Notes under the pieces: model-generated
Seen by the model: the letters and a program-made list of their open reading frames with translations, nothing else
Told to the model about the DNA's origin: nothing
Databases searched by the model: none
Part shown: positions 21,161 to 59,720 of the stretch, one piece after another
Position numbering within the stretch: position 1 is the first letter of the stretch
How the letters are laid out: each line of letters begins with the position of its first letter
Translations under genes and position numbers: made by a program
From: Puniceicoccales bacterium
GTDB taxonomy: Bacteria > Verrucomicrobiota > Verrucomicrobiia > Opitutales > JAIRLM01
Assembly: GCA_031282835.1 (NCBI GenBank)
Contig: JAITCU010000020.1
Location: forward strand, 15,805 to 79,804
Length of the DNA stretch: 64,000 bases
Direction of reading: 5' to 3'

Positions 21161-21316
21161 GAGCACCCGCTGCGTCATAACGTCCGGGCTTGTGTCTCTT
21201 TTGGCTCCGTGTCCAATTAAAAATTTACCGCATGATCGTCGCGAAAGAGCCAACGCCGTTGCCGCCGAAGCGCTACATAGGCTGGGGTTCGGGTATTTTC
21301 CGAAAAAGCAAGATGC

Positions 21317-23248: not shown

Positions 23249-23518
23249 CTAGTGAAGTAAGGTCGGAAAATAGGCGAACAGGTAGCGGGTGAATTGCATC
23301 ACCTCCGATCCGATCCACCGGGCGGTGATCAGCAACACCACGACAACGGAAATGAGTTTCATCGTAAATCCCAGGGTTTGTTCCTGAATTTGTGTAAGTG
23401 CCTGCAGGAGGCTCACGATAAGTCCCACGCCCGTGGCCACCAAAATGGATGGCAACGACAAAATGAGCACCAAAATCATGGCGCGTATGCTAAAGTCTAG
23501 GACGATGCTGTTTTCCAT
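23249..23518 (-). CDS. sctS: type III secretion export-apparatus protein SctS (YscS/FliQ family)
   Basis: 89 aa: MENSIVLDFSIRAMILVLILSLPSILVATGVGLIVSLLQALTQIQEQTLGFTMKLISVVVVLL (the FliQ signature QA.TQIQEQTL). This is the C-terminal part of a spurious 594-aa ORF-track entry. Confidence 0.85.
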   Translation of the reverse strand: MENSIVLDFSIRAMILVLILSLPSILVATGVGLIVSLLQALTQIQEQTLGFTMKLISVVVVLLITARWIGSEVMQFTRYLFAYFPTLLH

Positions 23519-23659
23519 GGAACAATCCCCGCGTCGAGTGTTGGGAAAAAACGCCATACCGCAACTCTTTTGGAAGCGGATGGGCACAAATATTGGGCTA
23601 GTGGCGAAGTCGGCCATTTCCACTTGACGCTGCCGGGATACTACCGATTCATGGTCGCC

Positions 23660-24940: not shown

Positions 24941-24965
24941 GGGCCTGGGGATGTACGCTAGGCTG

Positions 24966-25115
24966 CTACCGAAATATGAATTTTTTAAAGATGTAAAATT
25001 TGTCATTAACATATGGTTGGGTCCAGTGAACATTAATACTGATTTGAATAATACCAGAGATACTAGCTGGGAGCTTTCCTGCGCGTGACATCATAATTGG
25101 AAGGTTCAATGCCAT
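24966..25115 (-). pseudogene. 49-codon relic of a giant-gene-like 5' end (cassette C2)
   Basis: Starts with ATGGCATTG at the same place relative to the conserved leader as the giant ORF (ATGGCGCCA). GGTATTATTCAAATCA...CCAACC resembles GGCATCTTCAAATCA...CCAACC at codons 36-50 of the giant gene. It stops after 49 codons, next to the serS 3' end. Confidence 0.35.
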
Positions 25116-25218: not shown

Positions 25219-25413
25219 TTATGGTGATATTTCCCAAGTGGTTTTTGTGGCTGGCAGCGGGCTAGCCCGTTCTAAAAACGCAGGAAATTCTCGTGCAGAC
25301 GAGGGTTCCAGTTTGAAGCCAGGTGTCAGTCCTGGGGTTAGGGACGTTTGCAGTCCCCAATCGTCATAAAAAATATCTGCCTCGAACGCGGCGGTAACGG
25401 TGGTGCTTTTCAT
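25219..25413 (-). CDS. cassette small protein, 64 aa (C2)
   Basis: MKSTTVTAAFEADIFYDDWGLQTSLTPGLTPGFKLEPSSAREFPAFLERASPLPATKTTWEISP. SD AAAGGAGAA upstream. It aligns full-length with the 61-aa C3 ORF, with an in-frame 9-nt indel, the same stop and several third-position-only differences. Confidence 0.5.
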   Translation of the reverse strand: MKSTTVTAAFEADIFYDDWGLQTSLTPGLTPGFKLEPSSAREFPAFLERASPLPATKTTWEISP

Positions 25414-26436: not shown

Positions 26437-26650
26437 AAAACCTCCTCCTATGCCTGCTTGGCCTTGAACCGCGGGGCAACCTTATTAATGACGTACACCC
26501 GCCCCTTTCGCCGTACCACCTTACACGCGGGATGCCGGGACTTCAATGAACTCAACGACGCTGCAACCTTCATGACTGGCTCCACGCTGTACCACTGGCG
26601 GTGGATGTCAAGGCGTCCTTGGCAAGGATCTTGATTTTTTGGCTGTGCTA

Positions 26651-26747
26651 TAACAGAGGTCCTGCAAAAGTCGGAAACACTGTCTTAAGACCCGCATTTC
26701 ATGAGGGGCAAAATGGCCCAAAAGCGACTTCAGCAGGATCTCTAATG

Positions 26748-26750
<3 letters not shown>
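26651..26750 (+). repeat. ~97-bp palindromic element, copy A
   Basis: TAACAGAGGTCCTGCAAAAGTCGG...CGACTTCAGCAGGATCTCTAATGTTA: imperfect ~20-bp terminal inverted repeats around the internal hairpin CCCGCATTTCATGAGGGG. The right arm contains the stop codon of the Pro-rich gene on the other strand. Confidence 0.7.
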
Positions 26751-28382
<1,632 letters not shown>

Positions 28383-30098: not shown

Positions 30099-31277
30099 TC
30101 AGGTTGAAAGCCATTTAACCGCATTGCATACTCCGGCTTGAAAGCATTGTCGTAATTCGGCGGATACGGCGTTGAACTCCGAGCGTGCGTTGATGAGCAT
30201 AAGCAGTTGGCGCGCAATAACATCAGCCCGAGCCGCTCCTTGGATGTATTCCCGATAACATTCATAACCCAGGATGATATTTGCCAGGGCGAGAAATGGA
30301 ATTTTTATCAATTGCTGTCCGATCCAATGAGTCAGCGGACTGGTTTTGTAGATTACTACGCCGGGAATGCCCTCCAGGGCACACTGGAAAGACATGGTTC
30401 CAGAGCTTACGAGGGCCAGCCGTCCTCCGATGGGATTTTTGCGTGCCTCGTCCATGGGAATCAGTTGAATTTTGGGGGAAATTTTGGGGAATTTTCGCAA
30501 TTCCGCCTCCAGAAGTTCACGAATAGTTTCCGTGGGGTGAATGCAAACGGCGGACCAGTCGTCGCTTTTTTGCATTTCGGCGAATGCCTCCAGCATAGTC
30601 GGAAAAATACACCGAATATTTTGCCGCCGGCTGCCTGGGAGGAGGAAGATCGTTTGGTTTTTTTCGTAATGGATGGGACTTTTATGGTCTGGTGCCAGGA
30701 AGGGATGGCCTGTGAAAGTTACGGGCAGGGTGGTATCCGCGAAAACTTTGCTCTCAAATGGAAACAGGACGGCCAATGCGTCCAAGTCTTTTGCCATGGC
30801 AAAGCGGCGACTGGCTTTCCACGCCCACACCTGCGGCGCGACGTAGTAATAGAGCGAAACCGTCCCGCCACCCTTTAGGGAAATTTTTCGTTCACACAGG
30901 GCGCGAGCGACGCGCAAATGAAGTGCAGGGGAATCAATGAGGCAAATTCGTTTGGGGCGGTGGTTGTCTATCCACCGGATGACGTCCTGGTAATACTTAT
31001 AAAAAAAGCGCCCGTTGCGCAAGACTTCCCAAAATCCTAGAGCCGCATGCTCGGTGAGATCAAAGAGAAAATGAGGTGCTACCCGGGCCATATTGCGTCC
31101 GCCAATGGCGTAGATTTTTTCCCGAGGCCGTATTTTCAGAAGTCCTTCGATGAGTCGCGCCCCTAGCTCATCCCCAGAACACTCCGCCGCCATGAGCAAC
31201 AGGTCGACATCTCCTTGTGCCGGCGGGATTAACGGGATCGTGGAACTCACACATGGAATAACGGGTAAAAGTGGCAT
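30099..31277 (-). CDS. lpxB: lipid-A-disaccharide synthase
   Basis: The N-terminal AAECSGDELGARLIEGLL matches the LpxB AGE.SGD signature. Start set at Met 31277 to give ~392 aa; the longer ORF-track start (31409) would overlap divergent mpl. The start is uncertain. Confidence 0.8.
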   Translation of the reverse strand: MPLLPVIPCVSSTIPLIPPAQGDVDLLLMAAECSGDELGARLIEGLLKIRPREKIYAIGGRNMARVAPHFLFDLTEHAALGFWEVLRNGRFFYKYYQDVIRWIDNHRPKRICLIDSPALHLRVARALCERKISLKGGGTVSLYYYVAPQVWAWKASRRFAMAKDLDALAVLFPFESKVFADTTLPVTFTGHPFLAPDHKSPIHYEKNQTIFLLPGSRRQNIRCIFPTMLEAFAEMQKSDDWSAVCIHPTETIRELLEAELRKFPKISPKIQLIPMDEARKNPIGGRLALVSSGTMSFQCALEGIPGVVIYKTSPLTHWIGQQLIKIPFLALANIILGYECYREYIQGAARADVIARQLLMLINARSEFNAVSAELRQCFQAGVCNAVKWLST

Positions 31278-31323
31278 TAGCGCAATCCTATTGAGGCCGG
31301 ATTTGGGAACTCGACTTTCGCCG

Positions 31324-32805
31324 ATGGATTCTTGGAAATCGTCTGTGCAGCAAGATAATAAACGTGAACGTTTATATTTTTTAGCTATCGGCGGCGTGGC
31401 CATGGGCAATGTGGCGCTTTTGGCAAAGCGGCTGGGATACGAGGTTAGTGGCTGTGATCATAAGCTTTATCCGCCCATGGACCAGTTGTTGGGCGCAAGT
31501 GGCATTCCACTTGTGGAGGAATTTTCCCTGGAACATCTGATAAATTTTGTTCCACAGCGCGTTATTATTGGCAATGCCGTTGCCCGGGGAAATGCTGTGT
31601 TGGAGTATCTCCTTGAACGGGAGCGCCATCGTATGGTGTCGCTGCCAGAATTTTTTTCCCGGGATTTGGTAAAGGCTCGGAAACGCATTGTAATAAGCGG
31701 TACCCACGGGAAAACCACAACGGCTGCGCTGGCGGCATTTTACATGCGGCAAATGGGCGTACCTGGCGGATATTTTATTGGTGGCATTCCTAAGAATTTG
31801 CCGGGCGGTGTGGACCTGGGCGATGGTGCGGCTCCGTTCGTTTTTGAAGGGGATGAGTACGATTGTGCGTTCTTTGATAAGCGGAGCAAGTTTATTCATT
31901 ATTTGCCCGATACAGTTGTGATTAATCGCATCGATTTCGACCATGGGGATATTTTTCGCGATATCGGTGCCGTACAACGTAGTTTTTCTCATTTGCTGCG
32001 GCTCGTGCCGAACAGCGGTCATGTAATTGTCAACGGTGAGGACCCTAACATTGGCGCCATTTTGCCCGTGCCGTGGACGACCGTCCATCGGGTGGGATGG
32101 AAAAAGGAAAATGACTTTTCCCTGCAAAATTTTTCCATGGACCGGGGCGGTAGCAGGTGGGAGGTGGTACACGAGGGCGGGGCCTTTTGTGTGCAAACGG
32201 GTCTCCACGGGCGATTTAATGCCATGAATGCTACGATGGCCATTCTGGCGAACCACCTCACGCTGAATTTGCCTTTTCCCAAAGAAATTGATCTCCGGGA
32301 TTACGAAGGTGTGTGCCGGCGACAGGAAAAGTTGGTTGAAAATAGCGGTCTGGTTGTAATCGAAGACTTTGGCCACCATCCCCGGGCGGTTGCGGAAGTG
32401 CTTGCATCCCTGCGAGCACAGTACCCACATGATGAGCTTATTGCCTGCTTTGAGCCCGCCACTAACACTTCCATGTACCGCATGTGGGAGGAGGATTACG
32501 TCAGGGCATTTTCTGCCTGTGACCGCTGTTTCTGGGGCGTGCCGAGGAATATGGCTGGAGTTCCCTCGGAAAAGCGTTTGCGCGTTGATCGGCTCATGGG
32601 CGCGCTTTCCCAGAGCATTGGAGAAGCACGGCATTTTAGTGAAAACAAACTCCTGCTTGATCATCTGTTAGAGACACTCCAGGAAAATCCCAGCGGGAAA
32701 CGGCATGTGGTCGTACTTTTTTCCAGTGGCGCGTTTCCCGACGTACTCCCCTATTGGCGCTTGCGGGCCGGCCACGGCGCAAACGACAAGGAAGCGAGTT
32801 TATAG
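31324..32805 (+). CDS. mpl: UDP-N-acetylmuramate:L-alanyl-gamma-D-glutamyl-meso-DAP ligase (Mpl) / MurC-family ligase
   Basis: Start moved to MDSWKS (31324). N-terminal AIGGVAMGNVALLAKRLGYEVSGCD and the P-loop ISGTHGKTTT. Mpl versus MurC cannot be fully resolved by eye. Confidence 0.7.
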   Translation: MDSWKSSVQQDNKRERLYFLAIGGVAMGNVALLAKRLGYEVSGCDHKLYPPMDQLLGASGIPLVEEFSLEHLINFVPQRVIIGNAVARGNAVLEYLLERERHRMVSLPEFFSRDLVKARKRIVISGTHGKTTTAALAAFYMRQMGVPGGYFIGGIPKNLPGGVDLGDGAAPFVFEGDEYDCAFFDKRSKFIHYLPDTVVINRIDFDHGDIFRDIGAVQRSFSHLLRLVPNSGHVIVNGEDPNIGAILPVPWTTVHRVGWKKENDFSLQNFSMDRGGSRWEVVHEGGAFCVQTGLHGRFNAMNATMAILANHLTLNLPFPKEIDLRDYEGVCRRQEKLVENSGLVVIEDFGHHPRAVAEVLASLRAQYPHDELIACFEPATNTSMYRMWEEDYVRAFSACDRCFWGVPRNMAGVPSEKRLRVDRLMGALSQSIGEARHFSENKLLLDHLLETLQENPSGKRHVVVLFSSGAFPDVLPYWRLRAGHGANDKEASL

Positions 32806-33007: not shown

Positions 33008-33193
33008 TTAGGGAGATATTCTCCAGGTGGCTTTCGCAGTTGGCAGCGGGCTGGCCCGTCCTAAAAACGCAGGAAATTCCCAAGAAAATGGGGGTTCCAG
33101 TTTGAAGCCAGGTGTCAGTTCTGAGACTGGTAACGTTTGCAATTTGCAATCATCATTAAAAATATCTGTCGTAGCTGTGGCGGTACTTTTCAT
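33008..33193 (-). CDS. cassette small protein, 61 aa (C3)
   Basis: MKSTATATTDIFNDDCKLQTLPVSELTPGFKLEPPFSWEFPAFLGRASPLPTAKATWRISP. SD AAAGGAGAA upstream. Paralog of the C2 ORF. Confidence 0.5.
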   Translation of the reverse strand: MKSTATATTDIFNDDCKLQTLPVSELTPGFKLEPPFSWEFPAFLGRASPLPTAKATWRISP

Positions 33194-44775: not shown

Positions 44776-45759
44776 CTATTTCGGTTTTTGCGGCGAAAAC
44801 AGGGTAGAGGGCGAGAGTGGCTGGTGTTGTGTTGCGTAATTCGTTATGATATGGTCGGCTGCCTTTTTCATTTTCCCCGCCGGCGGTTGGAGTTCAAAGA
44901 TACGAAGAATCCCGTCCCTGGTGGCGACTTCCAGGGCTCCGTTTTGAATGCCCAAGGTAGTCCCTAGTTCGGCGCTCGGGTTCCCCTCGCGCCACTCGGT
45001 GCGTCCGACCTTGGTCGGCTTGTTGTTGTGAATAAAAAAGCTCCCCGGCCATGGTGTGTAAGCGCGGATTTGCGCCTCCAGATCCCTGGCGGGTTTGTTG
45101 AAGTCTAGGAGCCCGTCGGATTTTCGGATGAGTTTTGTGTAGGTTGCCTTTGTGTGGTCCTGTTCCATGGGCAGTAATCCGCCGGCCAGGGCGGCTTCTA
45201 AGTATTTCTTCAACACTTCGACGGCAGCATGGGATACCTTTTCCCGGAGCGTGGGTGTGGTTTCCTCCGGGGCGATGTCGATGGCTAAGGTTGCATAAAC
45301 GGGTCCCGTATCCATGGCCGGGACGAGTTTCATAAGCGATACACCTGTCTGGGTTTTCCGCTGCAAAATGGCGCTTTCGATGGGCGATGGGCCTCGGAGC
45401 TCCGGCAACAGCGATGGGTGCAAATTCAAAAAGCCAAGGGAAATGCCGTCCAACAACGTTTTGGGCAGAATGCACCCATAGGCAAAGACGAGGCCCACGT
45501 CCGCTTCCAGATCCAACATCCAGGGCAAAATTTCCTCCCTCGGCCGCTCCGGCTGCAACAAAGGAATGTTGTTTTCGCGTGCCCAGGCTGTGATGGGGTT
45601 TGGTTGAAGGCGGAGGCCGCGACCGCGCCTTTTGTCCGGACCACTCACGACGCCGGCGAGGCGGATTGCCGAGCCGGCGGTTGAAAAAAGCCATTGCAGT
45701 ACCCGGAGGCCGATACCATCGGATCCCAGGTAAACCAACCTCTTGGGTAAATCGCTCAA
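44776..45759 (-). CDS. fmt: methionyl-tRNA formyltransferase
   Basis: The HPSLLPELRGPSPIESAIL motif, plus a C-terminal domain with LQPPAGKMKKAADHI. Confidence 0.9.
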   Translation of the reverse strand: MSDLPKRLVYLGSDGIGLRVLQWLFSTAGSAIRLAGVVSGPDKRRGRGLRLQPNPITAWARENNIPLLQPERPREEILPWMLDLEADVGLVFAYGCILPKTLLDGISLGFLNLHPSLLPELRGPSPIESAILQRKTQTGVSLMKLVPAMDTGPVYATLAIDIAPEETTPTLREKVSHAAVEVLKKYLEAALAGGLLPMEQDHTKATYTKLIRKSDGLLDFNKPARDLEAQIRAYTPWPGSFFIHNNKPTKVGRTEWREGNPSAELGTTLGIQNGALEVATRDGILRIFELQPPAGKMKKAADHIITNYATQHQPLSPSTLFSPQKPK

Positions 45760-45872
45760 AGTGGCAGACTCTCAAACGATTCTCGGGCCTTGCCAAGGAA
45801 AGATATGCCGGCACCATCGAAACGGGGTTCCCCGGGAATATTTACAAAATCTTCGCATTTCCTCCGAAAGCG

Positions 45873-45937
45873 TTGACAAGCGCCCATTCTCAAGCAAGAT
45901 AGTCCAAGAATCTGGATTCTAAAAAAGAAAGTTCAAT
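45873..45937 (+). promoter_or_regulatory. cassette C4 promoter/operator
   Basis: TTGACA(45873-45878), 19 nt, GATAGT, CCA, AGAATCTGGATTCT (45907-45920), AAAAAAGAAAGTTCAAT, then ATG at 45938. Confidence 0.5.
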
Positions 45938-46111
45938 ATGAAAAATGTCATCATTATCGCCCCGCCCATGGCAGATATTTTTAATAGAGGTCCTGCGAAA
46001 GTCAGAAACACTGCCTTGAAACCCGCATTTCATGCGGGGCAAAATGGCTCAAAAGCGACTTCTGCAGGACCTCTATTATCCTCTTACCAACGTAGCCGGC
46101 TAAAACATTAA
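45938..46111 (+). pseudogene. cassette small ORF interrupted by the palindromic element (C4)
   Basis: MKNVIIIAPPMADIFN shares the ADIF(Y/N) motif with C2/C3. From codon 16-17 the frame runs into the 97-bp element and reads through it to a stop at 46109-46111. Confidence 0.4.
45982..46078 (+). repeat. ~97-bp palindromic element, copy B
   Basis: TAATAGAGGTCCTGCGAAAGTC...GACTTCTGCAGGACCTCTATTA, with the internal hairpin CCCGCATTTCATGCGGGG. Confidence 0.75.
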
Positions 46112-46674
46112 ACTTATTTTTTTCGGAGGAGGCCGTGGCGTTTATTTTGAGCTGTGCACGCATCACATTTAACAGATGAGACACGAAAGAAATAGCGCAT
46201 GGAGTGGATGTGGCATAATTGCCCGGAGACCGTTCTCCGGGTTCGTACCGCAGAGCCGAGCGGAAGCTGATTTGCTCGCCCCTTATGCGAATATTGAGCG
46301 AGAAAGACAGCGGGGACAAAATTGTATGTTGAAACTGCAGTATTGCATGCCAAGACGAATAAAATTTTTGTGCACCCTAGAAAGGGCGAGGTACGTTTCG
46401 GGGCGATGGCCACAGAAAAACAGCACCAGTGTTGGGTCACCGTCGTGCGGGAAGAGGGCACTGATGATGGAATCGCAAAAAGCAAAGGCGGTACGCCCAC
46501 AAGTCCCAACGGGGCAACCTGCAACCACAGAAAGCGGAAACTGGATTTTTGGCCCGAATGCAAAGTTTATTCGGTGGTGGCAAGCCTGGGTAATTTTGCC
46601 GCTTAGTACGCCCTGTAAATGGTTGTTGTCTCTGATTTGTCATAGTGGGGCCAACGGATACGGTTGCACCACTT

Positions 46675-49600
46675 CTAACCAACCCAACGTGGGATCCAGA
46701 GGGCAACGGCCGCGATGCCCGATGCGGCCCCCGGAAAGAAAAGAAGTGCGTATCCCCAGATGCCAATGGCAAGGATACCGATTATGTTGGTAAATACAAG
46801 GGCCAAAGCGGCGGCGATGAGCAGCAAACCGGAAATAATAGTAAGCGCGATGGCCCAACGTGGGTGCAGTATCTTCCGAGTTGCCGTGACTTGCATTATT
46901 TTCGATTTTGAAGGTCGATCGGGCACGACGGCAATGTCCTCTCTTACCGGGATGTTACCGTCTCCGTCGGGCCAGGTCTTGCCACAGCCCATTCCGAGGG
47001 GCCGGGAGTGGGAAATTGTTGTCCTAACATCCTCCCTGTCCTGGGTCGGGGTGCGGAGGAGGAGATAGTTTTGCCGCAGATTCAACAGCTTTGGATCGTG
47101 ATGTCCCTCACCGTCAGCGGCCATCACCTGCGCCACAAGGTCGCTGTTTTCCGTGAGGAGGTAGGGTATGTTTGCATTAAAAAGCGCCAATTCGCACAAC
47201 TTCCGCTGGCGGAACTCTTTAAGTTCATCCGGGATCTGCCCGTGGAGGCATGTGCCGGTTCCGGCGAGATAGATGCAGCAATTTTGCAGGTTTCCCTCCT
47301 TGGCGCGCAATGTATCGTACTCTTGCTTGGAAACGGCGATTGCACGTGGATTGGTCCTTTCGCTCTCCCATGTGATGACTAAATAACTGCAGTGCTTCTG
47401 GGTACGGTCGAAGACCGTATGTTCGGTTTCGCAGGATTGGGCGAAATTGCGGCTCAAATACAAGTCGGACGGAAAACAAGCGTCAAATTGGGAATAAATT
47501 TCGCGATCCTTCGGGTCCATGGGCCCGCCGTGCTCTCTTATTTGTTCGGGAACCGAACGACTTTTATCGGCGAAAAAGGTGTGCATATCCGTTGGACCAT
47601 CAATGATGAGCAGGTCCTCTTCTTTGGGATCCAGTCGATCGCCATAGCCGACTCGGGTTAGAAATTCTTCCAGCTGCAAATTAACGGAAATATTGCAGTT
47701 AACTTCCACCTCGGTCTGTTCTTGCACTTCGACCTGCACGGAGGCGTCGACATCCCCGGCATAGTTATCCGCGCCAACGGTGACGCATATGCCTTCCGTC
47801 CCTTGGAGGATTCTTACCTTTGTTTCATTGAAAGTTTTGGCGGCTTGTTCATCGAAGCGATCCAACAGTTGCGACTGCTCTAATTTTGTTTTTAATAGTT
47901 GTACTTTCCGATTGTAGTAGGCCTCAACGGCTTCATTGAGCGACATCGTGCGTTGGAGTGCAAAAAACATGGCTTCCGGCGAGAAATCATCCACTTTAGT
48001 CAATAGTTCTCCGACGGCGTTGGAAAAAATTGAAAGCCGCCAAGGGTCACTGGCCAAAGCGATCGCCGTCCGGCGGATGAAATCATCGACGAGTGTGTCC
48101 ACCTTGTCGTAACTGGCCCGGATGTATTGCTGGATAATGCTGCGCGACTGATTTCGCTGCAGGGTCGCATATATGTCCGCGGCCGTCGGTTCCCCGCCGT
48201 CCGCGAGGCGAAGGAATTGCGGCCGCGATTTTTCCAACGCCATGTAGTCAATGGTTTGCGAGCTGAGAAAGGCCCGCGGGCGGATATTCGCTTGGGCATT
48301 GCGATCGGTCGTTAGCCAGCTGGGATCGAGGGTTTGGAGTGCATGGCAATCGATGGGAAGCGGGAGGTCGGTACCCGTGCAACGTTGTTCGTCGTAGTAT
48401 GCAAAAAGAGCGTTGAAATCGTTGACGACGGCCGCCAGGGCCTCCCGGTTCATCGGCCGGATTGCGATGGGCTCCGTTCGATCCGCGCAAAGGACGAAGA
48501 ATGTCTGCCTATCGGGATCGTAATAAAGCACATGACGCACATCCGGAATGTCTTTCTGCGCGAAAGCCAAAATATCCCGCGCCACATCCCGTGGATGCTG
48601 GCCGTTGAGCAATGCTCCGGCGTCAATGAGTGCCCGCAGGCCTGTCACACCACCGACATGGGCCTCCAGCAGCATTTTCGCCGTTGGCCGCGCTTCACCG
48701 TTGTCCACGAATTGAATGGGCTGGGGCCGAGCGCCCATGAGTTCACAGTTCCGGGCAATGACCTGGCCGTCGCTGCCGGCCTGCAATTGGATGTCGACCT
48801 TGGCAAAGTTATATACGCCCTTGTTGGCCATGGTTCCGGAAAATCCGACGGTGCGGCTGAATAACCGCGGAAACTGTGCCGATTTACTCTCAACGGATTG
48901 GGTGGAAAAATGGATGCTTTTTTGGGCAAAAATTCGCGCAACTTTTTGCCGGCCGGAAATTTGAGTGTCTTGCCGAAGGAATGCGCACAGGCATTCGCAT
49001 ATCTTTTTCCGCGTGGATGGATCTGCCGTGGTTACGAGCGTTTCCACGGTCACCGGGCGATCCTCATAGTTGCAGTCCTTGAAGATTTCGTCAAATTCGT
49101 CGAAGGCCTTCCGCTGGCTTTCCTCGTCCGCCACGAGTCGCGATAACATGTCCACGTAGCTCTCAAGCATCCGCAGGGGAACGCCATCGATACTAATTCC
49201 AGCAAAGAAACAGCAGGCCGTCTGGTAGCAATTTTTGAATTCACTGCCCAGGTTGGGCTCGTTGGGCCCTTTGAAGGGGATGCAGGCGCCGTCGAGACCG
49301 AAGCCGAAGTTTTGGTTATATTTTTGCGTGAAAAGATGGGGCAACAGCGTGCCCAGCAGGCCCCGGGCTATGAGTATGCGATCGTAGGAGCGGAGGGATG
49401 CGGCGGTGCCCTGTTCCTTTTGCTGCTGTAAAAAGGCCAAAAATGCGTTTGCTTCCTGGCGCGTGGCGGTGTCCGTCTCCGGGACGTTGTCAAACTGGCC
49501 AAGGACGTATTTGTGGAAGGAGTTGCGCATTTCGTCGGGAATTTGAATGGCAAATTTTTCTTCAAGAACGTTTTGGGACAGCCGCCGCAGCACTTCCTGA

Positions 49601-52600
49601 ACTCGGTCCGGAGCCATGAGATGCTGCTGATTTTGCCGGAGTTCGGGACAAATCTCTGCAACGGAAATAATCACGTCACTGATAAAATCCAGATGCGCCT
49701 GGGGCATTCCCGGCAGCTGTCCGGCTGCCGGAGGTAGGGAAACATTCAGGTATTCCAGCGGGTTGAGGATGCGGTCAATTTCGTCGCCGATGAATATGGC
49801 ATCTTCGCCGAGAAGTTTGAAGATGTCTAGCAAAGTTTGGAGGCAAAGTTCATCCGTTTTGTTCCGCTGGGGCTTCCGCGCCAGGAGCTTGAATTGGGCT
49901 TCGAGTATTTCGATGGTGGTCGGGTCGATGACGAACACCCGGTCCCGCTCCTCCAGCGCCATTTGCATCTCCCGCAAAAGCCACTCCAGATTCCACGGTT
50001 CCCGTGTGTCCTGGAGGGTGAAGTTCGCGGACACAACCCGTATGTTCAGCCGCGAAAAGCTGGGTGCCAGTTCTGCGCGGAGGGCGTCAAACTGGGATTG
50101 ATTGTGGGCACAAACAAATGGGAGCTTCCGCTGCTGGGCTACCCGGGCGGCGTAGGTGGGGATGACCACACTCGTCTTTCCGGCGCCCATCTGCATTTGT
50201 ATGACCGTATCCGTTGGATTTTCCGCCCCCAAACCATCACACAATTTTTTAAGGATGTCGATTTGCCCGCGGCGGGCGTGTTTGCCGCTAACATATTCGT
50301 TGAGAAGGGCGTAGGGGTAACTTTCCGGGTTGTAGGTGTCGTCCCATTCTTCTAATTGGTCGAATAGGCGACTTTGGCAGGCGGACCGGCGGGCACCGTC
50401 ATTACCACCGGCACGTTGGAGGTCCTGAATGACTTGCATCAAATTGGCCATGCGGCGGAACATAATTTTGTGCCGCATGTACTGATGGGAACATTCCATG
50501 ATTTGAGGGACGTCGTCCGGCGTGATGCTGGGATTATATTTTTTGAGGAAATGAAAAAATCGCGCCGTATCGGGTGGCACGCGCGTTGCGAATTGGCCGT
50601 AGGCGGCGATGACCGCTTTGAGCTTTATGGGCGCGGAACAAACGACAACGTCCTGTGCCATTAGCATGGGACTCGGTTTGTTGACCAAGGCGAGGAGTTC
50701 CTCATGCAATTTCCGCGTCTCGGCGCGCATTTTTTGGCGGTGGACCTCGATGGATTGAGATGCGGCGTCACAATCGAAGGGCACCTTCTTAAGTTCCTCG
50801 TTGCGAGCTCGCTTGAGAGCCAATTGCTCGGCGCCGGTCTGGATTTCGCCGTTGAGTTCTTCGAGGGATTTTTGAAACGCATCGCCGATGGTATCCCGGT
50901 CGTCTGGGCTTAATTTTTTCAGATAATCCGCTGGAGTAAAATGGAGTGGACTTGCGGGCGCGGGCGAAGGGTTTTGGTGGAAGGCCACGAGCGCTCTTCG
51001 TAAACCTCCAAGGGCGGTTCCGACTCGGAAAAGTTCATCCTGCATGGGCAGGACTTGCAAATCGTGTGCCGCGGACGAGCCACTTTCCATGGCTTGAACT
51101 TTCTCTTCCTTTGCCAGCAACGGGTCGTAGTGCCGTAACCGTTCCGCCGGTTGTGCAAACTCTGCGGCAACTGAACCCGGGCGCAAAAAGTGGTCCAATG
51201 ACAGTAAACGCTTGGCAATGATCGGCTCCTGCGGATTGAGAATGCCGATGGACGCAAGGTGTTCCAACAGGCGCCGCTCCCGGCGGGGATCCATGCGCAA
51301 TTGTAGGGGCATGGAAGGTAAATTTTTGAGGTATGTTTCGAGGAGCGTCCCCAGGGGTTCGTTTTCAAATTTTAAAGCTCCCTCCCTGGGTTTGAGCACG
51401 GCGATGTCATTGCAATTGAGGCCGTACATTTCCGCCCATTTTTCCAATAGGAGCATGTGAACGGCGGCAACCTTCCCGGAATACCCCTTCATGCGTCGGC
51501 CTTCTAAAAGACAGTCTATCATAAGCTGGTGATGGACCGGCGAGAGGGCGGCTCCGGCGTGAAGTCGCTTAAAATATTCCGCAGCTTGGTCGTAGTCGCC
51601 CTGGAGCAGAAAAATGACGCCCAGTTGCAGGTTCCCGTCGTTGGATAATCCATCCAGGCGGGTTGCACCCGGTTCTTCCCGGCGTTGGACGAAGTGCGCC
51701 TCCACGGGTGTGGCTGTCCCGATGAAAGGCTTGTCCATGGTTGGCGTATTGCAGAAGGCGGAGGACACGGTTGCCCCAATTGGCCCAGCTCGCCCAAGCA
51801 TCTGGGCCACGCCGTCGGGCGCCGCATCATCCAATGCATCATCTCGCTGTGATTGTAAGCCGACGGCGGGCATTATAACTTTGTAGGAACCGGGCTGTTT
51901 CGTATTATGCAAAAAAATCGCATTTTTGTAGCTCCCGAGTGGGTTTGATTTTTTATTGCCGCCCGGGCCGGCGTACATCTCCGGCACGTCTACCAGCTGG
52001 TAATCCGTGCCGCGCTGCATCCATTTGTCGTCGCGCAACTCAAAGCATAAATCATAACGAGGGGCCCAGACCTTTTGCAGCTTGTTATGCGCATCCACAA
52101 AAAAAGCGCAATTTTTCTCATTTTCGAAGCGGGAGAGCCATGTGACACTTTGGGGGTTAGGATGGGGCGCCAAGAAAAGGCCCTTGTATGGTTCAAACGT
52201 GCACTCCAGTTTCCAGTCGGGACCGCTTCCCTGGCTTTGGAAGTAGATGATTTCTGGATGTTTCCGATCGCGCACCTGCAGTTGTCCACCGGGCCCCATC
52301 CATGCGGTGTATGTTTCGCTGCATAGCCAATTCGGAAGTTGAAGAGCCCTTTGTAAAATTCTCGCCGGTGCGTACTGCCACCACTGGTCCGATTTACCGA
52401 AATTGGTGCTAATCACCTGTCCATGCGTACCATAGGAAAGTCGGACGTTCCCGTAGGCTGGATCGGTGAAGGATGTCCATTCGCCGCTGTGGATAAATTC
52501 GCGGTTTTCAGGGCCAAAAAGCCGCTGATAGTCCCGCGCACTGGTGAGTGTGTCCGCCGTTCGAATTTCGTGCCCGCCCCAGAAAACGTGGAAATTGTTA

Positions 52601-55600
52601 AAATCTACCCAGGAATTTTTTGGCACCTCTCCCCCCATGCGTTGGCAGAAACTTGCCAATATTGATCGTTCGATGCGTGCCCGTTTGTTTGGAGACTTTT
52701 GCAGGAGACCACCCAGCTCTGGAACGGTACCACAAATGGTTTTGTAGCAGGAGTGCGGTATGCCTTGTAATTTGAGCGCGCGGGAGGCGAAAACGTCTCC
52801 GTAGAACCCGACGAGGAGTCCATCATCGATTTCTTCAATTTTGGAGCCATCGGTGAAGAACTTCATCCGTTCCACGGCGAGCTCGACCCTGGCTAGGTGT
52901 AAAATCGCCTGTTCGTCCGAGCCCAGGGTGCGGCCAAACTTTCTTTCTATTTCGTCGAGTTGCTGTAACCTCAATTCGACGGATGGGAAAATGGGTTCTT
53001 CGGTGGAACTAAATGGGCAGCCATGTATCTCCATGTGGATTTCTTGACACTGATGGATGAGGTGTGCCATGTAACAAAGGGCGTGTACGTCTGGCCGCTG
53101 GAAGGGTTTCATTTCCAGGTGGAGGCGCAGGACGGAGTTATACGTATCTTGCAATACTCTGAATAATTTTTCCGGATTTCGTTCGATCTCATCGGCAAGG
53201 GAACAAACCGGTCGGCTGGCAAACGGCCTTTCTCTGAAGAGTTGGCCATCCATTACGTAATGGGATCTGTTTTCCGCGGCGTTGGGAATGGATTCCGGAC
53301 GCTCGGCCTGTTGAAAGTTGGCAAGCAGCATGTTGTCCAACAGCGCAAGGAGCATGGTCTTTCCGTGCTGTTCCCTGTCATCGACGCCGAAACGGCTGAA
53401 TAGATCCAGGTGTGAATTGATGATGTCGAAGAGGGAATACACCTGCGTCCCGGGGACGGAGAGGGCCTTCCCAATTTCATAGAATAGGGGATGCTCGGCA
53501 AACGCCGTGTTGCCACCGTTTAGGAAACGTTTGCTGTGATATTCCAGCTTGGCCGGGGCGCCACGGCCATCGCACACCAGCTCAGGGACATGGGTCACAT
53601 TCCATGGGTCCAGGGCGGACACGTGATTTTCATCGTTGAAGCAGCGCCAATTGAACTTATCGCGTTCGTCCCAGTAATCCCACATGAGAGGAAGTTGATC
53701 CGATTGGACGCAGGCGCTCTCAAGTTGTACGCTTGGAAGCTGGTGCGGGTAAAATTCGTTGAATAAAAGTTTCGGACCGGGGATACCACCCAAAATCTTG
53801 CGCACGGACTCCCAATGGGCGCATTGGTCCTCAAATACGTATTTCGTGTCGTCGACGGATCTTGCCCAAACGTACGCCCATTTTCGTTCTTCGAAAAACT
53901 TGTCCATTTGGCCGTCAGGAGCTCCCGGGACTATCTTGCCAGCCACATTTTGAAAACCGGGACACGCCGCTGAAAAGCGTTGCAATTGACTCATGCCCTC
54001 GTCAGGTCCATGGCCGCCGTAGTTACAATACGAACGCATATAGGAATCACTGCGATCGATGGTTCCACAACCTAACGAAAAATCCACGGTCTGTGACTTG
54101 TTGTGCCTGTAAAAGTCTAACACCTTTTGCTGTCGTTCGCGATCTGCGGCGGACATGGATTGGCATGCGTCATTGGCGGTAAATAATTCAAATACATGGC
54201 AATCAAGTGAATATGCGGACAGACTGTCATCTGTCGCGCCACCGAGGCCTCCGGGCATTTTTAATAGCCAGAATGTGACCAGCCTGATATTGGTCACTTC
54301 CGCCGCGAATGGGGCCGCAATGTGCCAGGGGAGTTCGGCGCTGCTTTGGTCCAAAATTTGTTCCTCGAGGCCGGAACTGAAGAAATGTCGGTAGCCATCG
54401 GTTACGGACGACAAACTACCCCCCATTTGCTCGGTTAGCTTATCTAAGAATCTAGCAAAGATAGCAACGCACCGCTTATGGTCGTCAGAGTTCCCCTGCG
54501 CCCAGAATGGATCATTGGGCAATGGCAAAAGGGACATCAATTCCTTGGCGTAAAAGATACCCGCGTAGTCGTAGGGTTTACTTGTGGTGTCAAATGAGAA
54601 ATTCGCCATCGCATTAAGAACTTTGGCGTAATCTCTCTTTAGCAATTCGATTTCCGGGCGGACGATCTCAATGTGGGGGACCACATCGGCTTCGGTGGCC
54701 TTGTGAAGCACGCTTTGAATTTTAGCCGACATGTCACCACCCGGCGGCGGGGCGATGGTTTCAGGGAATGCATTTCGCGTCTCCGCCTGGTGCATGGCTT
54801 GGTAGTATTCGGGACTTTTTAGTGTGGTGTCGCATCGGTTCAAAAGGGCTTCCATCCCGTCAACGTATGGCGCAGCATCCGCGGAAAGTTCCTTAAGCCT
54901 ATGGCCATATTTTCTTAGAAAAAGCTCCGTGGTACCGACGCTTTCCCGGAGCATCCACAATTGATCCATTTTCCGCGCCGGGTCTCCAGCGGGATCGGTA
55001 AGTACATTGCTACAATGGTCATGAAGTGCCCCAAGCGCGCCCAGGCGGTTGAAGAGTTCGATGAGCCGCGTGTATTCACCGCTGCGTTTGACGAGCGCTT
55101 TCAATTCCGAAGGTGTTCCGTGTGGGTGTTTGCGCAAGAGATGCTGATAGATCGTCATGCGGAAGAGTGCCGCCAACGAAGCCCATGGGTCTTTATCGGA
55201 AACCTTGGAAAATAAATCCCCACGCAATGCTGCATGGCCATCCAGGAGAACCTCGTGGCCAATCTGGGTACTGGGATCCTCACCCCCCCAAAGTTTTTCG
55301 AAATTGCCTTGCTGGGCTGCAAATTCAATGAATTTGGGTAGAATGCTTTTGAGTGCATCCGCATTCAGGTGGAAGGACCGGCCCAGTCGGCTTTTTTCTA
55401 CGAAGGACGCATGCCTCTGTTTGTCGAATTCACCGCGCGCCCGGCTGGAACTAACATCGATCTCATGAAAATAAAATGTCCCGTCATCCAGCTTCTCAAC
55501 CACCACATAGCAGCAACTGGTTTGGCCATGAGCCTCGGGATAAGTGAGAGGCATGCAAAATCGTTGGCCTGGGTTTAGCGTACGGATTTTCTCAGAGATT

Positions 55601-56172
55601 TCCTCAGATTTTGCGGCAATTTGTGTTTTCAGCTCCGGTTCCCATAACGCCGCAAACGGGACCATTTCCGCGGAGAATGCTTGCGCCTGCTTGGCCATTG
55701 AGCGCAGTTCGGCGACCAAATCATGGGCCTCGCGGCCTTTGAGGATCCCCTCCATTTGGTCGAATACCCGCACGCTTGTTTCCAGCGGAGATTGCGAATC
55801 GCCATCATTTTCAATGGAAGTTTCGTGGATGAATTCGCGCATCAGGACCGGACCAACGGGCGCAGAGAAATGAGACGGGCTTTCCTCCTCGGGCGGCAAT
55901 GCGTTGGATGGAGCAAACGCCTCGGAAAACGGGTTGATATTCATAATGGCGGTATTATACATCTCCCGGGAGAGAACGCAATGCTCTCCCCATGGAATGT
56001 CTATTATAAATAGACAATTCCCCGGGTTGGCAAAATTTAAAGTAGAATTTTTGATTTGAAGATGCCCTTTTAGCAGACACACTCCCTTCTTTTGTTTTTT
56101 CATATTTTCTCGCGCTTTCTTAATATTAGAGCACGCCACGCCACCGGAAGGGTCTTCCGGACATGGCGCCAT
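46675..56172 (-). CDS. giant (3165-aa) tail-anchored protein with a SecA/SF2-like P-loop ATPase module (candidate effector)
   Basis: Uninterrupted 9498-nt ORF. Motifs: QMQMGAGKTSVVIP (nt 50173-50187), FIGDEIDRIL (49774-49785), VGFSGTM (48832-48846) and YDEQRCTGTDLPLP (~48364-48393). A C-terminal bilobed hydrophobic anchor at 46678-46860. No signal peptide. The start codon is uncertain. Confidence 0.9.
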   Translation of the reverse strand: MAPCPEDPSGGVACSNIKKARENMKKQKKGVCLLKGHLQIKNSTLNFANPGNCLFIIDIPWGEHCVLSREMYNTAIMNINPFSEAFAPSNALPPEEESPSHFSAPVGPVLMREFIHETSIENDGDSQSPLETSVRVFDQMEGILKGREAHDLVAELRSMAKQAQAFSAEMVPFAALWEPELKTQIAAKSEEISEKIRTLNPGQRFCMPLTYPEAHGQTSCCYVVVEKLDDGTFYFHEIDVSSSRARGEFDKQRHASFVEKSRLGRSFHLNADALKSILPKFIEFAAQQGNFEKLWGGEDPSTQIGHEVLLDGHAALRGDLFSKVSDKDPWASLAALFRMTIYQHLLRKHPHGTPSELKALVKRSGEYTRLIELFNRLGALGALHDHCSNVLTDPAGDPARKMDQLWMLRESVGTTELFLRKYGHRLKELSADAAPYVDGMEALLNRCDTTLKSPEYYQAMHQAETRNAFPETIAPPPGGDMSAKIQSVLHKATEADVVPHIEIVRPEIELLKRDYAKVLNAMANFSFDTTSKPYDYAGIFYAKELMSLLPLPNDPFWAQGNSDDHKRCVAIFARFLDKLTEQMGGSLSSVTDGYRHFFSSGLEEQILDQSSAELPWHIAAPFAAEVTNIRLVTFWLLKMPGGLGGATDDSLSAYSLDCHVFELFTANDACQSMSAADRERQQKVLDFYRHNKSQTVDFSLGCGTIDRSDSYMRSYCNYGGHGPDEGMSQLQRFSAACPGFQNVAGKIVPGAPDGQMDKFFEERKWAYVWARSVDDTKYVFEDQCAHWESVRKILGGIPGPKLLFNEFYPHQLPSVQLESACVQSDQLPLMWDYWDERDKFNWRCFNDENHVSALDPWNVTHVPELVCDGRGAPAKLEYHSKRFLNGGNTAFAEHPLFYEIGKALSVPGTQVYSLFDIINSHLDLFSRFGVDDREQHGKTMLLALLDNMLLANFQQAERPESIPNAAENRSHYVMDGQLFRERPFASRPVCSLADEIERNPEKLFRVLQDTYNSVLRLHLEMKPFQRPDVHALCYMAHLIHQCQEIHMEIHGCPFSSTEEPIFPSVELRLQQLDEIERKFGRTLGSDEQAILHLARVELAVERMKFFTDGSKIEEIDDGLLVGFYGDVFASRALKLQGIPHSCYKTICGTVPELGGLLQKSPNKRARIERSILASFCQRMGGEVPKNSWVDFNNFHVFWGGHEIRTADTLTSARDYQRLFGPENREFIHSGEWTSFTDPAYGNVRLSYGTHGQVISTNFGKSDQWWQYAPARILQRALQLPNWLCSETYTAWMGPGGQLQVRDRKHPEIIYFQSQGSGPDWKLECTFEPYKGLFLAPHPNPQSVTWLSRFENEKNCAFFVDAHNKLQKVWAPRYDLCFELRDDKWMQRGTDYQLVDVPEMYAGPGGNKKSNPLGSYKNAIFLHNTKQPGSYKVIMPAVGLQSQRDDALDDAAPDGVAQMLGRAGPIGATVSSAFCNTPTMDKPFIGTATPVEAHFVQRREEPGATRLDGLSNDGNLQLGVIFLLQGDYDQAAEYFKRLHAGAALSPVHHQLMIDCLLEGRRMKGYSGKVAAVHMLLLEKWAEMYGLNCNDIAVLKPREGALKFENEPLGTLLETYLKNLPSMPLQLRMDPRRERRLLEHLASIGILNPQEPIIAKRLLSLDHFLRPGSVAAEFAQPAERLRHYDPLLAKEEKVQAMESGSSAAHDLQVLPMQDELFRVGTALGGLRRALVAFHQNPSPAPASPLHFTPADYLKKLSPDDRDTIGDAFQKSLEELNGEIQTGAEQLALKRARNEELKKVPFDCDAASQSIEVHRQKMRAETRKLHEELLALVNKPSPMLMAQDVVVCSAPIKLKAVIAAYGQFATRVPPDTARFFHFLKKYNPSITPDDVPQIMECSHQYMRHKIMFRRMANLMQVIQDLQRAGGNDGARRSACQSRLFDQLEEWDDTYNPESYPYALLNEYVSGKHARRGQIDILKKLCDGLGAENPTDTVIQMQMGAGKTSVVIPTYAARVAQQRKLPFVCAHNQSQFDALRAELAPSFSRLNIRVVSANFTLQDTREPWNLEWLLREMQMALEERDRVFVIDPTTIEILEAQFKLLARKPQRNKTDELCLQTLLDIFKLLGEDAIFIGDEIDRILNPLEYLNVSLPPAAGQLPGMPQAHLDFISDVIISVAEICPELRQNQQHLMAPDRVQEVLRRLSQNVLEEKFAIQIPDEMRNSFHKYVLGQFDNVPETDTATRQEANAFLAFLQQQKEQGTAASLRSYDRILIARGLLGTLLPHLFTQKYNQNFGFGLDGACIPFKGPNEPNLGSEFKNCYQTACCFFAGISIDGVPLRMLESYVDMLSRLVADEESQRKAFDEFDEIFKDCNYEDRPVTVETLVTTADPSTRKKICECLCAFLRQDTQISGRQKVARIFAQKSIHFSTQSVESKSAQFPRLFSRTVGFSGTMANKGVYNFAKVDIQLQAGSDGQVIARNCELMGARPQPIQFVDNGEARPTAKMLLEAHVGGVTGLRALIDAGALLNGQHPRDVARDILAFAQKDIPDVRHVLYYDPDRQTFFVLCADRTEPIAIRPMNREALAAVVNDFNALFAYYDEQRCTGTDLPLPIDCHALQTLDPSWLTTDRNAQANIRPRAFLSSQTIDYMALEKSRPQFLRLADGGEPTAADIYATLQRNQSRSIIQQYIRASYDKVDTLVDDFIRRTAIALASDPWRLSIFSNAVGELLTKVDDFSPEAMFFALQRTMSLNEAVEAYYNRKVQLLKTKLEQSQLLDRFDEQAAKTFNETKVRILQGTEGICVTVGADNYAGDVDASVQVEVQEQTEVEVNCNISVNLQLEEFLTRVGYGDRLDPKEEDLLIIDGPTDMHTFFADKSRSVPEQIREHGGPMDPKDREIYSQFDACFPSDLYLSRNFAQSCETEHTVFDRTQKHCSYLVITWESERTNPRAIAVSKQEYDTLRAKEGNLQNCCIYLAGTGTCLHGQIPDELKEFRQRKLCELALFNANIPYLLTENSDLVAQVMAADGEGHHDPKLLNLRQNYLLLRTPTQDREDVRTTISHSRPLGMGCGKTWPDGDGNIPVREDIAVVPDRPSKSKIMQVTATRKILHPRWAIALTIISGLLLIAAALALVFTNIIGILAIGIWGYALLFFPGAASGIAAVALWIPRWVG

Positions 56173-58927: not shown

Positions 58928-59620
58928 ATGCAAACAACACCGCAGCAGGCCCCATGGGAGAAGGGGGAATTCGTTCTCATCGCTATCGATGGCGGGGCGG
59001 GATCGGGAAAGACTTCGACGGCCCGTGTCATCGCCGAGCGGAACAATTTTGCGTTTGTTTCCACGGGAGAGCACTACCGCATCCTCACCCGTTACCTGGC
59101 GGAGGAAAATATTTCGCCCGGAAACGCCGCGGCCCTCCGGGGGGCACTGGGCCGGCTGCGACCCACCACGCAATTCATCGGCAACCAGGCACATATGTGC
59201 CTGGACGGGACTGTTGTGCCTGCTGAGGAGCTCCACAACGGCGTAATCAATACCATCGTCGCTGACTATGCCCAGAACCCCACTTTGCGGGAATTTCTCC
59301 ATGACTATCAGCGGCAGCTACCCCAGACGGCCCAGGCAGTCGGCTATGCCGGACTTGTCATCGAGGGTCGAGACATGACCAGCGCCGTTTTTCCCGAGGC
59401 CGATCTGTGTGTTTTCCTCGACGCCGATCCCCGGACACGACAACTTCGCCGAAAAATGGAGGGCATAGCCGATGACATCCATGCCCGGGATACCAAGGAT
59501 AGTCCACGATTACAACGAAGAGACGGCATGTTGTACGTGGATTCCACGGAACTTTCCCTAGACGAAGTGGTCTCCATAATTCAAAAAGAAATACAAAAAC
59601 TAACCGTCGAACATCATTAG
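58928..59620 (+). CDS. cmk: cytidylate kinase
   Basis: IAIDGGAGSGKTSTARVIA...VSTGEHYR. Start set at ATG 58928, preceded by GGAGGAAAGA. The longer ORF-track start (58781, ATGA overlap with glmS) would add a 49-aa hydrophobic extension. Confidence 0.85.
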   Translation: MQTTPQQAPWEKGEFVLIAIDGGAGSGKTSTARVIAERNNFAFVSTGEHYRILTRYLAEENISPGNAAALRGALGRLRPTTQFIGNQAHMCLDGTVVPAEELHNGVINTIVADYAQNPTLREFLHDYQRQLPQTAQAVGYAGLVIEGRDMTSAVFPEADLCVFLDADPRTRQLRRKMEGIADDIHARDTKDSPRLQRRDGMLYVDSTELSLDEVVSIIQKEIQKLTVEHH

Positions 59621-59712
59621 AAGTCCTGCAAAAATCAGAAACACTGCCTTGAAGCTCGCATTTTATGCGGGGTAAAACGGCCAAAAAGCGACTTCTGCAG
59701 GACCTCTAATAG
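59617..59712 (+). repeat. ~97-bp palindromic element, copy C
   Basis: TTAGAAGTCCTGCAAAAATCAG...GCGACTTCTGCAGGACCTCTAATAG. The left arm contains the cmk stop codon TAG. Confidence 0.7.
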
Positions 59713-59720
59713 AGCTAAAA

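Follow-up and report, generated by a model that had tools for sequence, protein, structure and literature searches.

A palindromic element at the break point of a promoter-like cassette upstream of fmt in an uncultured Puniceicoccales bacterium

The window analysed in this study is a stretch of 64,000 nucleotides from contig JAITCU010000020.1 of a Puniceicoccales bacterium (assembly GCA_031282835.1). At 45826-46111 it carries cassette C4, a truncated, orphan copy of a repeated module consisting of a promoter-like region, a leader and a small open reading frame (ORF), which runs directly into E3, a copy of a 97-bp imperfect palindrome identified by repeat search, nhmmer and folding (45982-46078). 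On the left, C4 is divergent from fmt (44776-45759, minus strand), which encodes methionyl-tRNA formyltransferase and was used as the anchor for the synteny comparison. On the right, beyond a flank unrelated to the cassettes (46079-46674), it is convergent with the gene for a 3165-aa protein with a DUF3638 domain (46675-56172, minus strand), whose own upstream region is another cassette, C5. The whole C4 copy of the module occupies 45826-45985 on the plus strand. Its promoter-like part and 5' leader (45826-45937) contain a GGGnTTyCCC/AATATTT box, a TTGACA at 45874-45879, a -10-like GATAGT, the palindrome GAATCTGGATTC and an A-rich stretch resembling a ribosome-binding site (RBS); the TTGACA is invariant across the cassettes and the box is conserved. 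Similarity of this leader to C1, C2, C3 and C5 was found by blastn (E 1e-12 to 3e-17) and nhmmer (E 5e-43), and it also matches two contigs of related organisms that are discussed below (L004:9932-9804 and L009:647-486). The promoter role is presumed from the consensus alone, and a simple promoter scan does not flag C4 because of its 19-nt spacer.

The C4 ORF opens at the ATG at 45938, reads MKNVIIIAPPMADIFN and then RGPAKVRN..., and stops at 46111. Only its first 16 codons (45938-45985, plus strand) represent the small ORF of the cassette, being the last part homologous to C2 and C3; the rest of the 57-aa frame is read-through of the element followed by 11 codons of flanking DNA. In C2 the corresponding frame continues ...EADIFYDDWGLQ, and in C3 ...TDIFNDDCKLQ. 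From 45982 the element reads TAATAGAGGTCCTGCG...CTGCAGGACCTCTATTA and ends at 46078, with TAATAGAGGTCCTGC...GCAGGACCTCTATTA forming the palindrome. The first-pass annotation had described all of this, namely the C4 ORF, the palindrome and the C2/C3 continuations, and each was found where it had been placed. The chimeric 57-aa ORF has no Pfam match, was called as a gene solely in the same strain, and most likely has no functional product.

The left junction is sharp. In a repeat search of the whole window with no query end imposed, the homology that C4 shares with C2 and C3 (blastn E 1e-12 to 7e-14) reaches no further than 45985, and the 16 codons alone still score 18-22 against C2 and C3 in Smith-Waterman alignment, where shuffled sequences reach 6.5±1.2. 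The junction is in register, with GCA GAT ATT TTT forming codons 12-15 in both C4 and C2, and the hidden Markov model (HMM) of the small-ORF family matches C4 at positions 1-17 only. At the other end of the element, the right arm is intact up to the first non-homologous base.

To the right of E3, no trace of the cassette could be confirmed. Comparison of 46079-46700 with the window and the related loci gave no similarity by blastn at word size 7, nor with the window and the relatives by tblastx, for which the fmt control was strongly positive. An nhmmer profile of the C2, C3 and L009 remainders found no match in the right flank even at E 100 and recovered C5 at E 2e-7; the protein HMM of the small-ORF family gave no match in any of the six frames, and the ORFs in 46002-46793 have no Pfam match. 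The earlier statement that the sequence downstream of the element no longer resembles C2 or C3 is thus borne out by blastn, MAFFT, Smith-Waterman alignment, the nhmmer profile and the protein HMM alike. The minus strand of the flank does contain two hairpins resembling terminators, at 46498-46486 and 46442-46427, past the stop codon of the giant gene.

These results bear on the first-pass description of the ORF as split by insertion of the element. The left junction resembles an insertion junction and this part of the description stands. A simple insertion, in which an intact cassette ORF was broken by the 97-bp insert and nothing else happened, is nevertheless barely credible: when the element was deleted in silico and C4 was aligned with the cassettes by MAFFT, as had been put forward as a check with C2 and C3, nothing meaningful aligned and no ORF was restored, the right flank is without cassette similarity in any of the searches by blastn, Smith-Waterman alignment, nhmmer and protein HMM, and the locus is a synteny breakpoint.

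A larger insertion comprising E3 and about 385 bp (45986-46463), with a degraded continuation of the ORF from 46464, would place the missing remainder further to the right. In the Smith-Waterman alignments of the flank against the remainders of C1, C2, C3, C5 and L009, all scores were at the level of shuffled sequences with one exception, 46464-46526 against C3 33156-33093 (65% identity, score 17 versus 12.0±1.5 for shuffles, p ~0.007), and this similarity begins exactly at the C3 break point. The exception is the best local alignment of a 597-bp flank in one of 20 tests, and C2, C1, C5 and L009 give nothing. The nhmmer profile and the protein HMM do not bear it out, and the most conserved block of the cassettes, CTGACACCTGG, is not retained in 46464-46526. 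The similarity is thus an unconfirmed hint, and the larger insertion is considered very unlikely.

An independently assembled Logan contig of run SRR14710905 contains both junctions of the element and agrees with the window at 100% identity over 10,197 bp. The data set of this run is the only other one in which the exact fmt protein was found together with the exact 57-aa ORF; it represents the same strain as the window and thus supports both junctions while offering no other allele. Within the C4 cassette, two Logan contigs come to an end and share no more than 22 nt (45915-45936). This could be taken as a sign of an assembly chimera, in which the promoter on the fmt side and the side with the ORF start, E3 and the giant gene were misjoined via the repeat. 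Against this, the join is bridged by the window sequence itself, the other cassettes are only ~67% identical there and have no long exact word in common, and an overlap shorter than k-1 was argued to reflect a coverage gap and not a repeat branch. A misjoin is therefore given very little weight, and as both element junctions lie inside one Logan contig, the junction of element and ORF stands regardless.

The element is strongly structured. E3 consists of an outer stem of 16 perfect base pairs, a middle stem and an apical 7-bp hairpin (CCCGCAT-TTC-ATGCGGG), and folds with -48.3 kcal/mol, compared with -21.2±3.5 for shuffled sequences (z = -7.9), the other strand behaving alike; across the element copies the z-scores range from -4.2 to -7.9. 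Its end sequence is TAGAGGTCCTGC, and five occurrences of the 15-nt terminus were counted in the window where 0.09 are expected. It has no coding capacity of its own, its 97 nt are not a multiple of 3, and the sole ORF crossing E3 is the chimeric read-through described above.

In the window, the element is represented by three full copies, a partial one and a decayed one. Besides E3, the full copies are E2 (26651-26747, plus strand), which adjoins the TAA stop (26748-26750) of a 544-aa minus-strand gene, and E4 (59612-59711, plus strand), which has the TAG stop of cmk (59618-59620) inside its terminus and is followed by tRNA-Ala about 10 nt further on; both are found by nhmmer at E ~1e-33, with bounds of 26648-26749 and 59613-59713. 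Of E1 (12347-12400, minus strand) only the right half is recognisable (nhmmer 12347-12386, E 4e-10). A decayed, element-like palindrome lies between groEL and cassette C3 (33568-33643, minus strand) and is assigned weakly, at nhmmer E 0.014-0.022. In related organisms, copies were found at L009:816-912 (E 2e-20), L009:193-283 (E 5e-14) and L005:1511-1602, the last past a gene end, and a diverged copy lies at L004:5440-5520, 9 nt past the clpB stop. The consensus hairpin is retained in six copies from the window, L009 and L005, with compensatory changes in five pairs. A lone 22-nt match to the element terminus (TATAGAGCTCCTGCAGAAGTC, 19/21 identical to E3) was also seen at L009:77-98, where it falls in the first codons of the ORF following the L009 cassette (MALNIPIM...HIIELLQKSG) and the contig ends.

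At 88% identity to E2 and 87% to E4, E3 is nearer to both than they are to each other (80%). The 16-bp arms of E3 are perfect and those of E2 and E4 are decayed. By this comparison E3 is the least diverged copy, nearest to the family consensus, and it is probably the youngest. The idea that E3 is a hybrid of two diverged copies was rejected, as the identities of its left and right halves show no signal.

The position of several copies at gene ends raises the question whether the palindrome is a functional RNA, that is, a conserved 3'-end hairpin acting as terminator or stabiliser and kept by selection. E2, E4, L004:5440-5520 and the L005 copy lie at stop codons or a few nt away, and the compensatory changes preserve the structure. 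On the other side, no U-tract follows the element and no Rfam match was obtained. The searches against Rfam 15 returned no family for the element: at gathering score the window yields tRNAs only, the sole match in 45700-46700 at E ≤ 1 is a chance-level 6A RNA in the C4 leader (20 bits, cut-off 41), and cassette C2 has no match. Moreover, the copies stand at non-orthologous sites and in both orientations, are absent at corresponding places in relatives, and include one inside a cassette leader of L009, so that such an RNA must have moved anyway. As the explanation of the locus this is scarcely probable; a secondary role of the element at 3' ends is possible and compatible with the best explanation given below.

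Indications for the mobility of the element come in particular from contig L009, which derives from the same Joint Genome Institute (JGI) sample and encodes a cmk 78% identical to that of the window. L009 carries a complete cassette (650-100, minus strand, E 3e-23) and two element copies. In a blastn comparison with the window, homology to C3 and C2 extends to L009:283, where the element (286-194) takes over, and C2 is matched again at 167-124; the two homologous blocks are 38 nt apart in C2 and 115 nt apart in L009. The C2 and C3 paralogs can thus be read as the empty sites for a clean insertion of the element inside the L009 cassette leader. Relative to the cassette, this copy is oriented opposite to E3. 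In addition, the element upstream of fmt is absent in all five relatives compared, and the one after cmk is absent in the cmk loci of contigs L009 to L012. The copy flanked by cassette homology in L009, together with these absences in relatives and with the occurrence of copies in both orientations at non-orthologous sites, supports the proposal in the first-pass annotation that the element is or was mobile.

The homologs of fmt place the window in the Puniceicoccales, with 73-75% identity to the best named matches, metagenome-assembled genomes (MAGs) of this order, and 78-81% to JGI proteins. A fmt protein 100% identical to that of the window (P0001) was found on a 107-kb JGI contig. Five related fmt loci were compared, namely L004 and L007 (JGI 3300042612), L005 and L006 (NCBI MAGs) and L008 (Logan). 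In all five, a Na_H_antiport_3 gene lies directly upstream of fmt on the same strand, with a spacer of 57-81 nt except in L004, where it measures 206 nt. In the window, this place is taken by C4 and E3, then by ~600 bp of DNA without a match and by the giant gene with its 3' end, and no antiporter gene or remnant could be detected anywhere in it by tblastn, including 46079-46675. The longer spacer of L004 contains a module in the place and orientation of C4 (L004:9948-9795, nhmmer E 6e-13), which stops 26 nt past its ATG, at the antiporter stop codon, and is without the element. As judged from this shared place and orientation, the module upstream of fmt is older than the split of the window and L004 lineages. 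The arrangement of E3 with its right flank is specific to the window lineage.

The relative age of E3 can be estimated from the same comparisons. C4 is 65-69% identical to each of the other cassettes, and C2 and C3 are ~78% identical to each other. Since the cassettes, including the L004 ortholog, show only ~65-69% identity compared with 80-88% among the element copies, and the L004 module lacks the element, the data support a later date for E3 than for the cassette duplication, in agreement with the order of events inferred in the first-pass annotation.

Taken together, the cassette on the left flank, the unrelated DNA on the right flank and the break in gene order are probably best explained by insertion of the element followed by a second, element-anchored event. 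In this sequence of events, the module already stood upstream of fmt before the window and L004 lineages split, as the L004 locus attests. To judge from the left junction, the next step would have been insertion of an element copy into the small ORF, in its A/T-rich stretch ...GATATTTTTAAT. Thereafter, the rest of the module would have been exchanged for the unrelated DNA that now adjoins the giant gene at its 3' end, in an event with the intact right terminus of the element as its anchor. Candidates for this event are an adjacent deletion or inversion, as brought about by transposable elements, and homologous recombination between two copies of the element; the event would also have parted fmt from its ancestral Na+/H+ antiporter neighbour; the break itself is evident from the five relatives, and its mechanism is a proposal. 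A second event, or else a truncation unrelated to the element, is required by the lack of any cassette remainder and by the synteny breakpoint. The likeliest role of the element at this locus is accordingly that of marking a rearrangement junction. A transcript starting at the promoter-like site of C4 would run into a hairpin of -48 kcal/mol and would encode only the meaningless 57-aa chimera, for which reason C4 would be a dead or re-purposed module and not a gene with a cleanly excisable insert.

The main rival to insertion and rearrangement is an independent truncation, by which C4 was already a fragment when the element arrived, either at the A/T-rich junction or together with the right-hand block. 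Truncated modules do arise without the element: the L004 module stops 26 nt past its ATG with no element nearby, and the deletion in C5 starts about 40 nt past the ATG, near the break in C4. The elements also favour A/T-rich contexts at gene ends. Against this stands the fact that non-homology starts exactly at one intact terminus of the element while homology to C2 and C3 reaches the other, so that two unrelated events would have to share a boundary within 4 nt, and L009 provides an example of the element inserting into a cassette. Independent truncation is therefore regarded as unlikely, though clearly ahead of the other alternatives.

Several further observations weigh against insertion followed by rearrangement. 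In view of the truncated modules of L004 and C5, it could be by accident that the break point and the element coincide. L004 is no true empty site, its module ending before the insertion point of E3, and no true empty-site allele was encountered, the sole other data set with the locus being from the same strain. To trace the right flank, homologs were sought with the C-terminal 800 aa of the giant protein, and no match was obtained, the protein itself included. A larger insert is hinted at by the weak, unconfirmed similarity between 46464-46526 and the C3 continuation. Finally, target-site duplication is inconsistent, and no transposase was found among the ~30 larger ORFs of the window.

The ends of five full copies and of two partial or diverged ones were aligned to examine the target site. 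They share a core (T)AGAGGTCCTGC...GCAGGACCTCT(A), outside which the bases are A/T-rich and variable. The termini take the forms TAATAGAG, TAACAGAG, CATTAGAA and AACTAGAG, i.e. (A/T)TAGAG, CAGAG or CTAGAG, and contain stop codons in several frames. The flanks of E3 can be read as TA...TA or AT...AT and those of copy L9A as ACT...ACT, while the flanks of E2 and E4 show no matching repeat. The TA/TAA duplication that had been suggested is thus not consistent over the five full copies, and no single rule for a duplication of fixed length fits these copies, which are few and old. In the Pfam search of the ~30 larger window ORFs, neither a transposase domain nor a REP-associated tyrosine transposase (RAYT; REP, repetitive extragenic palindrome) was detected.

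Pattern scans of public sequence data yielded neither further copies of the element nor empty-site alleles. The pattern AAGCGACTTCNGCAGGAYCTCT gave a single 24-nt match in public genome contigs, in a Chloroflexia MAG, without a palindromic partner and at about chance level, and zero matches in metagenome and viral contigs; a degenerate core pattern of the element likewise had zero matches in metagenome contigs. No such element for the Puniceicoccales lineage was found in the searchable literature, and searches for literature on Puniceicoccales with type III secretion and on run SRR14710905 gave no match.

Among known repeats, the element behaves like a bacterial repeat of the MITE (miniature inverted-repeat transposable element) or REPIN (REP doublet forming a hairpin) type in a clade of uncultured Puniceicoccales. 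MITEs, such as Correia of Neisseria, ERIC (enterobacterial repetitive intergenic consensus) and RUP (repeat unit of pneumococcus), are short non-coding repeats that have been linked to genome rearrangement (PMC10969869). The element shares with them its small, non-coding length of 97 bp, terminal inverted repeats folding into a long hairpin, and dispersed copies that differ in presence or absence, are mostly intergenic near gene ends, occasionally disrupt ORFs or regulatory regions and are tied to rearrangement. It differs from them in lacking a consistent target-site duplication, and a cognate transposase or insertion sequence with the same ends was not found in the window. The Correia inverted repeat is presumably unrelated to it in sequence. 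With REPs and REPINs it shares the palindromic doublet with a spacer, two inverted units forming a hairpin of ~100 bp, the extragenic location just past stop codons or near 3' ends (E2, E4, L004 and L005), the lack of target duplications, and a structure kept by compensatory changes. REPs carry a conserved terminal tetranucleotide of the GTAG type, which is recognised by RAYT; this tetranucleotide is not conserved at the termini of the element.

Rickettsia palindromic elements (RPEs) insert into ORFs of intracellular bacteria (PMC10969869). E3 is likewise a palindromic repeat within an ORF, read through in frame by a called gene, and the host of the window is probably host-associated as well, as judged by its type III secretion components and giant DUF3638 protein. 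RPEs, however, are ~150 bp long, are inserted in frame and leave the host protein otherwise intact, whereas the 97 nt of the present element are not a multiple of 3 and the distal part of the host ORF is gone. The cassettes for their part recall re-used or 'mobile' promoters, which are homologous upstream regions found before unrelated genes. They consist of ~150-450 bp of promoter-like and leader sequence located upstream of unrelated genes and also as orphans, and a 150-bp copy of the module has been inserted into the antiporter-fmt spacer of L004. The difference is that the cassette also carries a small ORF with homologs in at least 21 protein clusters.

Five copies of the module (C1-C5) are present in the window. 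The order of its parts is a GGGATTTCCC/AATATTT box, TTGACA, a -10-like xATAAT 19 nt on, a palindrome of the GAATTCGAATTC type and an A-rich/RBS-like stretch preceding ATG AAA. Downstream of the small ORF, C2 and C3 have a conserved linker (..ATTAACAAAAAA..), then a hairpin and a short ORF that begins MAL.... C1 (16745-16982, plus strand) has a 41-aa ORF whose stop overlaps the start of alaS (ATGA). C2 (24966-25540, minus strand) comprises the promoter-like region, a 64-aa ORF (25219-25413), the linker and a short MALNLPIM... ORF, its 3' part running into the 3' end of the convergent serS. C3 (32636-33320, minus strand) is built alike, with a 61-aa ORF (33008-33193), linker and short ORF, and runs into the 3' end of a convergent 551-aa gene (31150-32805, plus strand), the product of which looks Mur-ligase-like by eye. 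C5 (56173-56455, minus strand) lies upstream of the giant gene, and an internal deletion beginning ~40 nt past its ATG has shortened the small ORF to 14 codons. The modules precede unrelated genes (alaS and the giant DUF3638 gene) or stand as orphans facing convergent 3' ends, and they are not gene cassettes in the integron sense.

A further question was the coding status of the conserved 200 nt of the module, RNA or protein. When 1.84 billion cluster representatives were scanned in full with HMMER, 21 small proteins of 52-69% identity were returned, which carry the motif ..DIF.GDW.LQ...LTPGFKLEPSF.REFPAFL.RASPLP..; in public protein data, homologs of the small ORF make up at least 21 clusters at the 50% identity level. 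P0147, P0161 and P0164 were rejected as relatives, being unrelated tandem-repeat proteins with scores inflated by many weak stretches. The evidence for a protein is mixed. In its favour are the 21 small proteins and the fact that, within the ORF, C2, C3 and the L009 copy differ in length by 9 and 6 nt. Against it, substitutions between C2 and C3 are distributed 16/10/15 over codon positions 1/2/3, with 21 non-synonymous and 7 synonymous codon differences, and the C-termini are frameshifted in many family members. Furthermore, the L009 copy (L009:337-534, minus strand) has two in-frame TGA codons where C3 has TGG; nonetheless it aligns in frame over all 64 HMM positions, and the DNA is conserved past both TGA codons. 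This copy may represent a pseudogene or a non-coding element, or possibly read-through; ordinary stops terminate the other genes of the L009 organism.

A functional link between element and cassette was also considered, in which element copies flank or cut cassettes and thereby mobilise or recombine promoter-bearing fragments. Hints in this direction are that the L009 cassette is bracketed by two element copies of the same orientation (816-912 and 193-283), that the decayed copy lies ~250 nt upstream of C3, and that C4 is ended by E3. Such a link is at present improbable. If true, the pair of element and cassette would rewire expression, including that of type III secretion-related genes and the giant DUF3638 gene, and would drive frequent synteny breaks in this symbiont-like lineage.

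The ~30 larger ORFs of the window were scanned against Pfam. They include dnaA, alaS, serS, groEL, dnaK, thyA, lpxB, cysS and nrdD, genes for SctS, SctT, SctU and a secretin, and hypothetical proteins without a Pfam match. Given the presence of dnaA (13485-14909), the window may lie near the replication origin. The combination of nrdD, type III secretion, the secretin, the 3165-aa DUF3638 protein and relatives among uncultured Puniceicoccales MAGs suggests an anaerobic, host-associated bacterium. Between alaS and sctU, two tandem units of ~310 bp are found at 20620-21175, which are 76-81% identical. A 594-aa ORF (23249-25033, minus strand) is antisense to serS (23570-24940, plus strand), and only its last ~90 residues look real; this end matches SctS/Bac_export_3 and is followed on the same strand by sctT (22439-23227) and sctU (21317-22432). 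The 544-aa gene next to E2 (26748-28382) contains runs of GGC/GGT triplets and periodic repeats of 12 and 18 nt at 27625-28057, and its product has no Pfam match above the gathering score.

The cmk locus, at which E4 is situated, was also compared with that of relatives. The C-terminus of the window's cmk product departs from relatives only in its last few residues. The glmS-cmk pair is conserved in L009 to L012 and in the window, and the gene after cmk differs in each lineage examined: tRNA-Ala and tRNA-Arg in the window, a 510-aa gene in L009, a 249-aa gene in L010, and rpmF-plsX-fabH in L011 and L012. These differences indicate that gene order is highly fluid in this clade.

The locus has consequences for annotation. 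Both the 57-aa ORF of C4 and an adjoining 205-aa ORF are called as genes in a public assembly, and the 594-aa frame near C2 could also pass for a gene; each of these frames is a by-product of repeats or antisense reading. A terminus of the element can supply the stop codons of real genes, as for cmk. Insertion by a MITE-like element followed by rearrangement is an ordinary type of event, here met in an unstudied lineage, and the cassette family is the less ordinary feature of the two. The locus shows a hairpin repeat and a promoter/leader module shaping gene order in an uncultured verrucomicrobial lineage with type III secretion.

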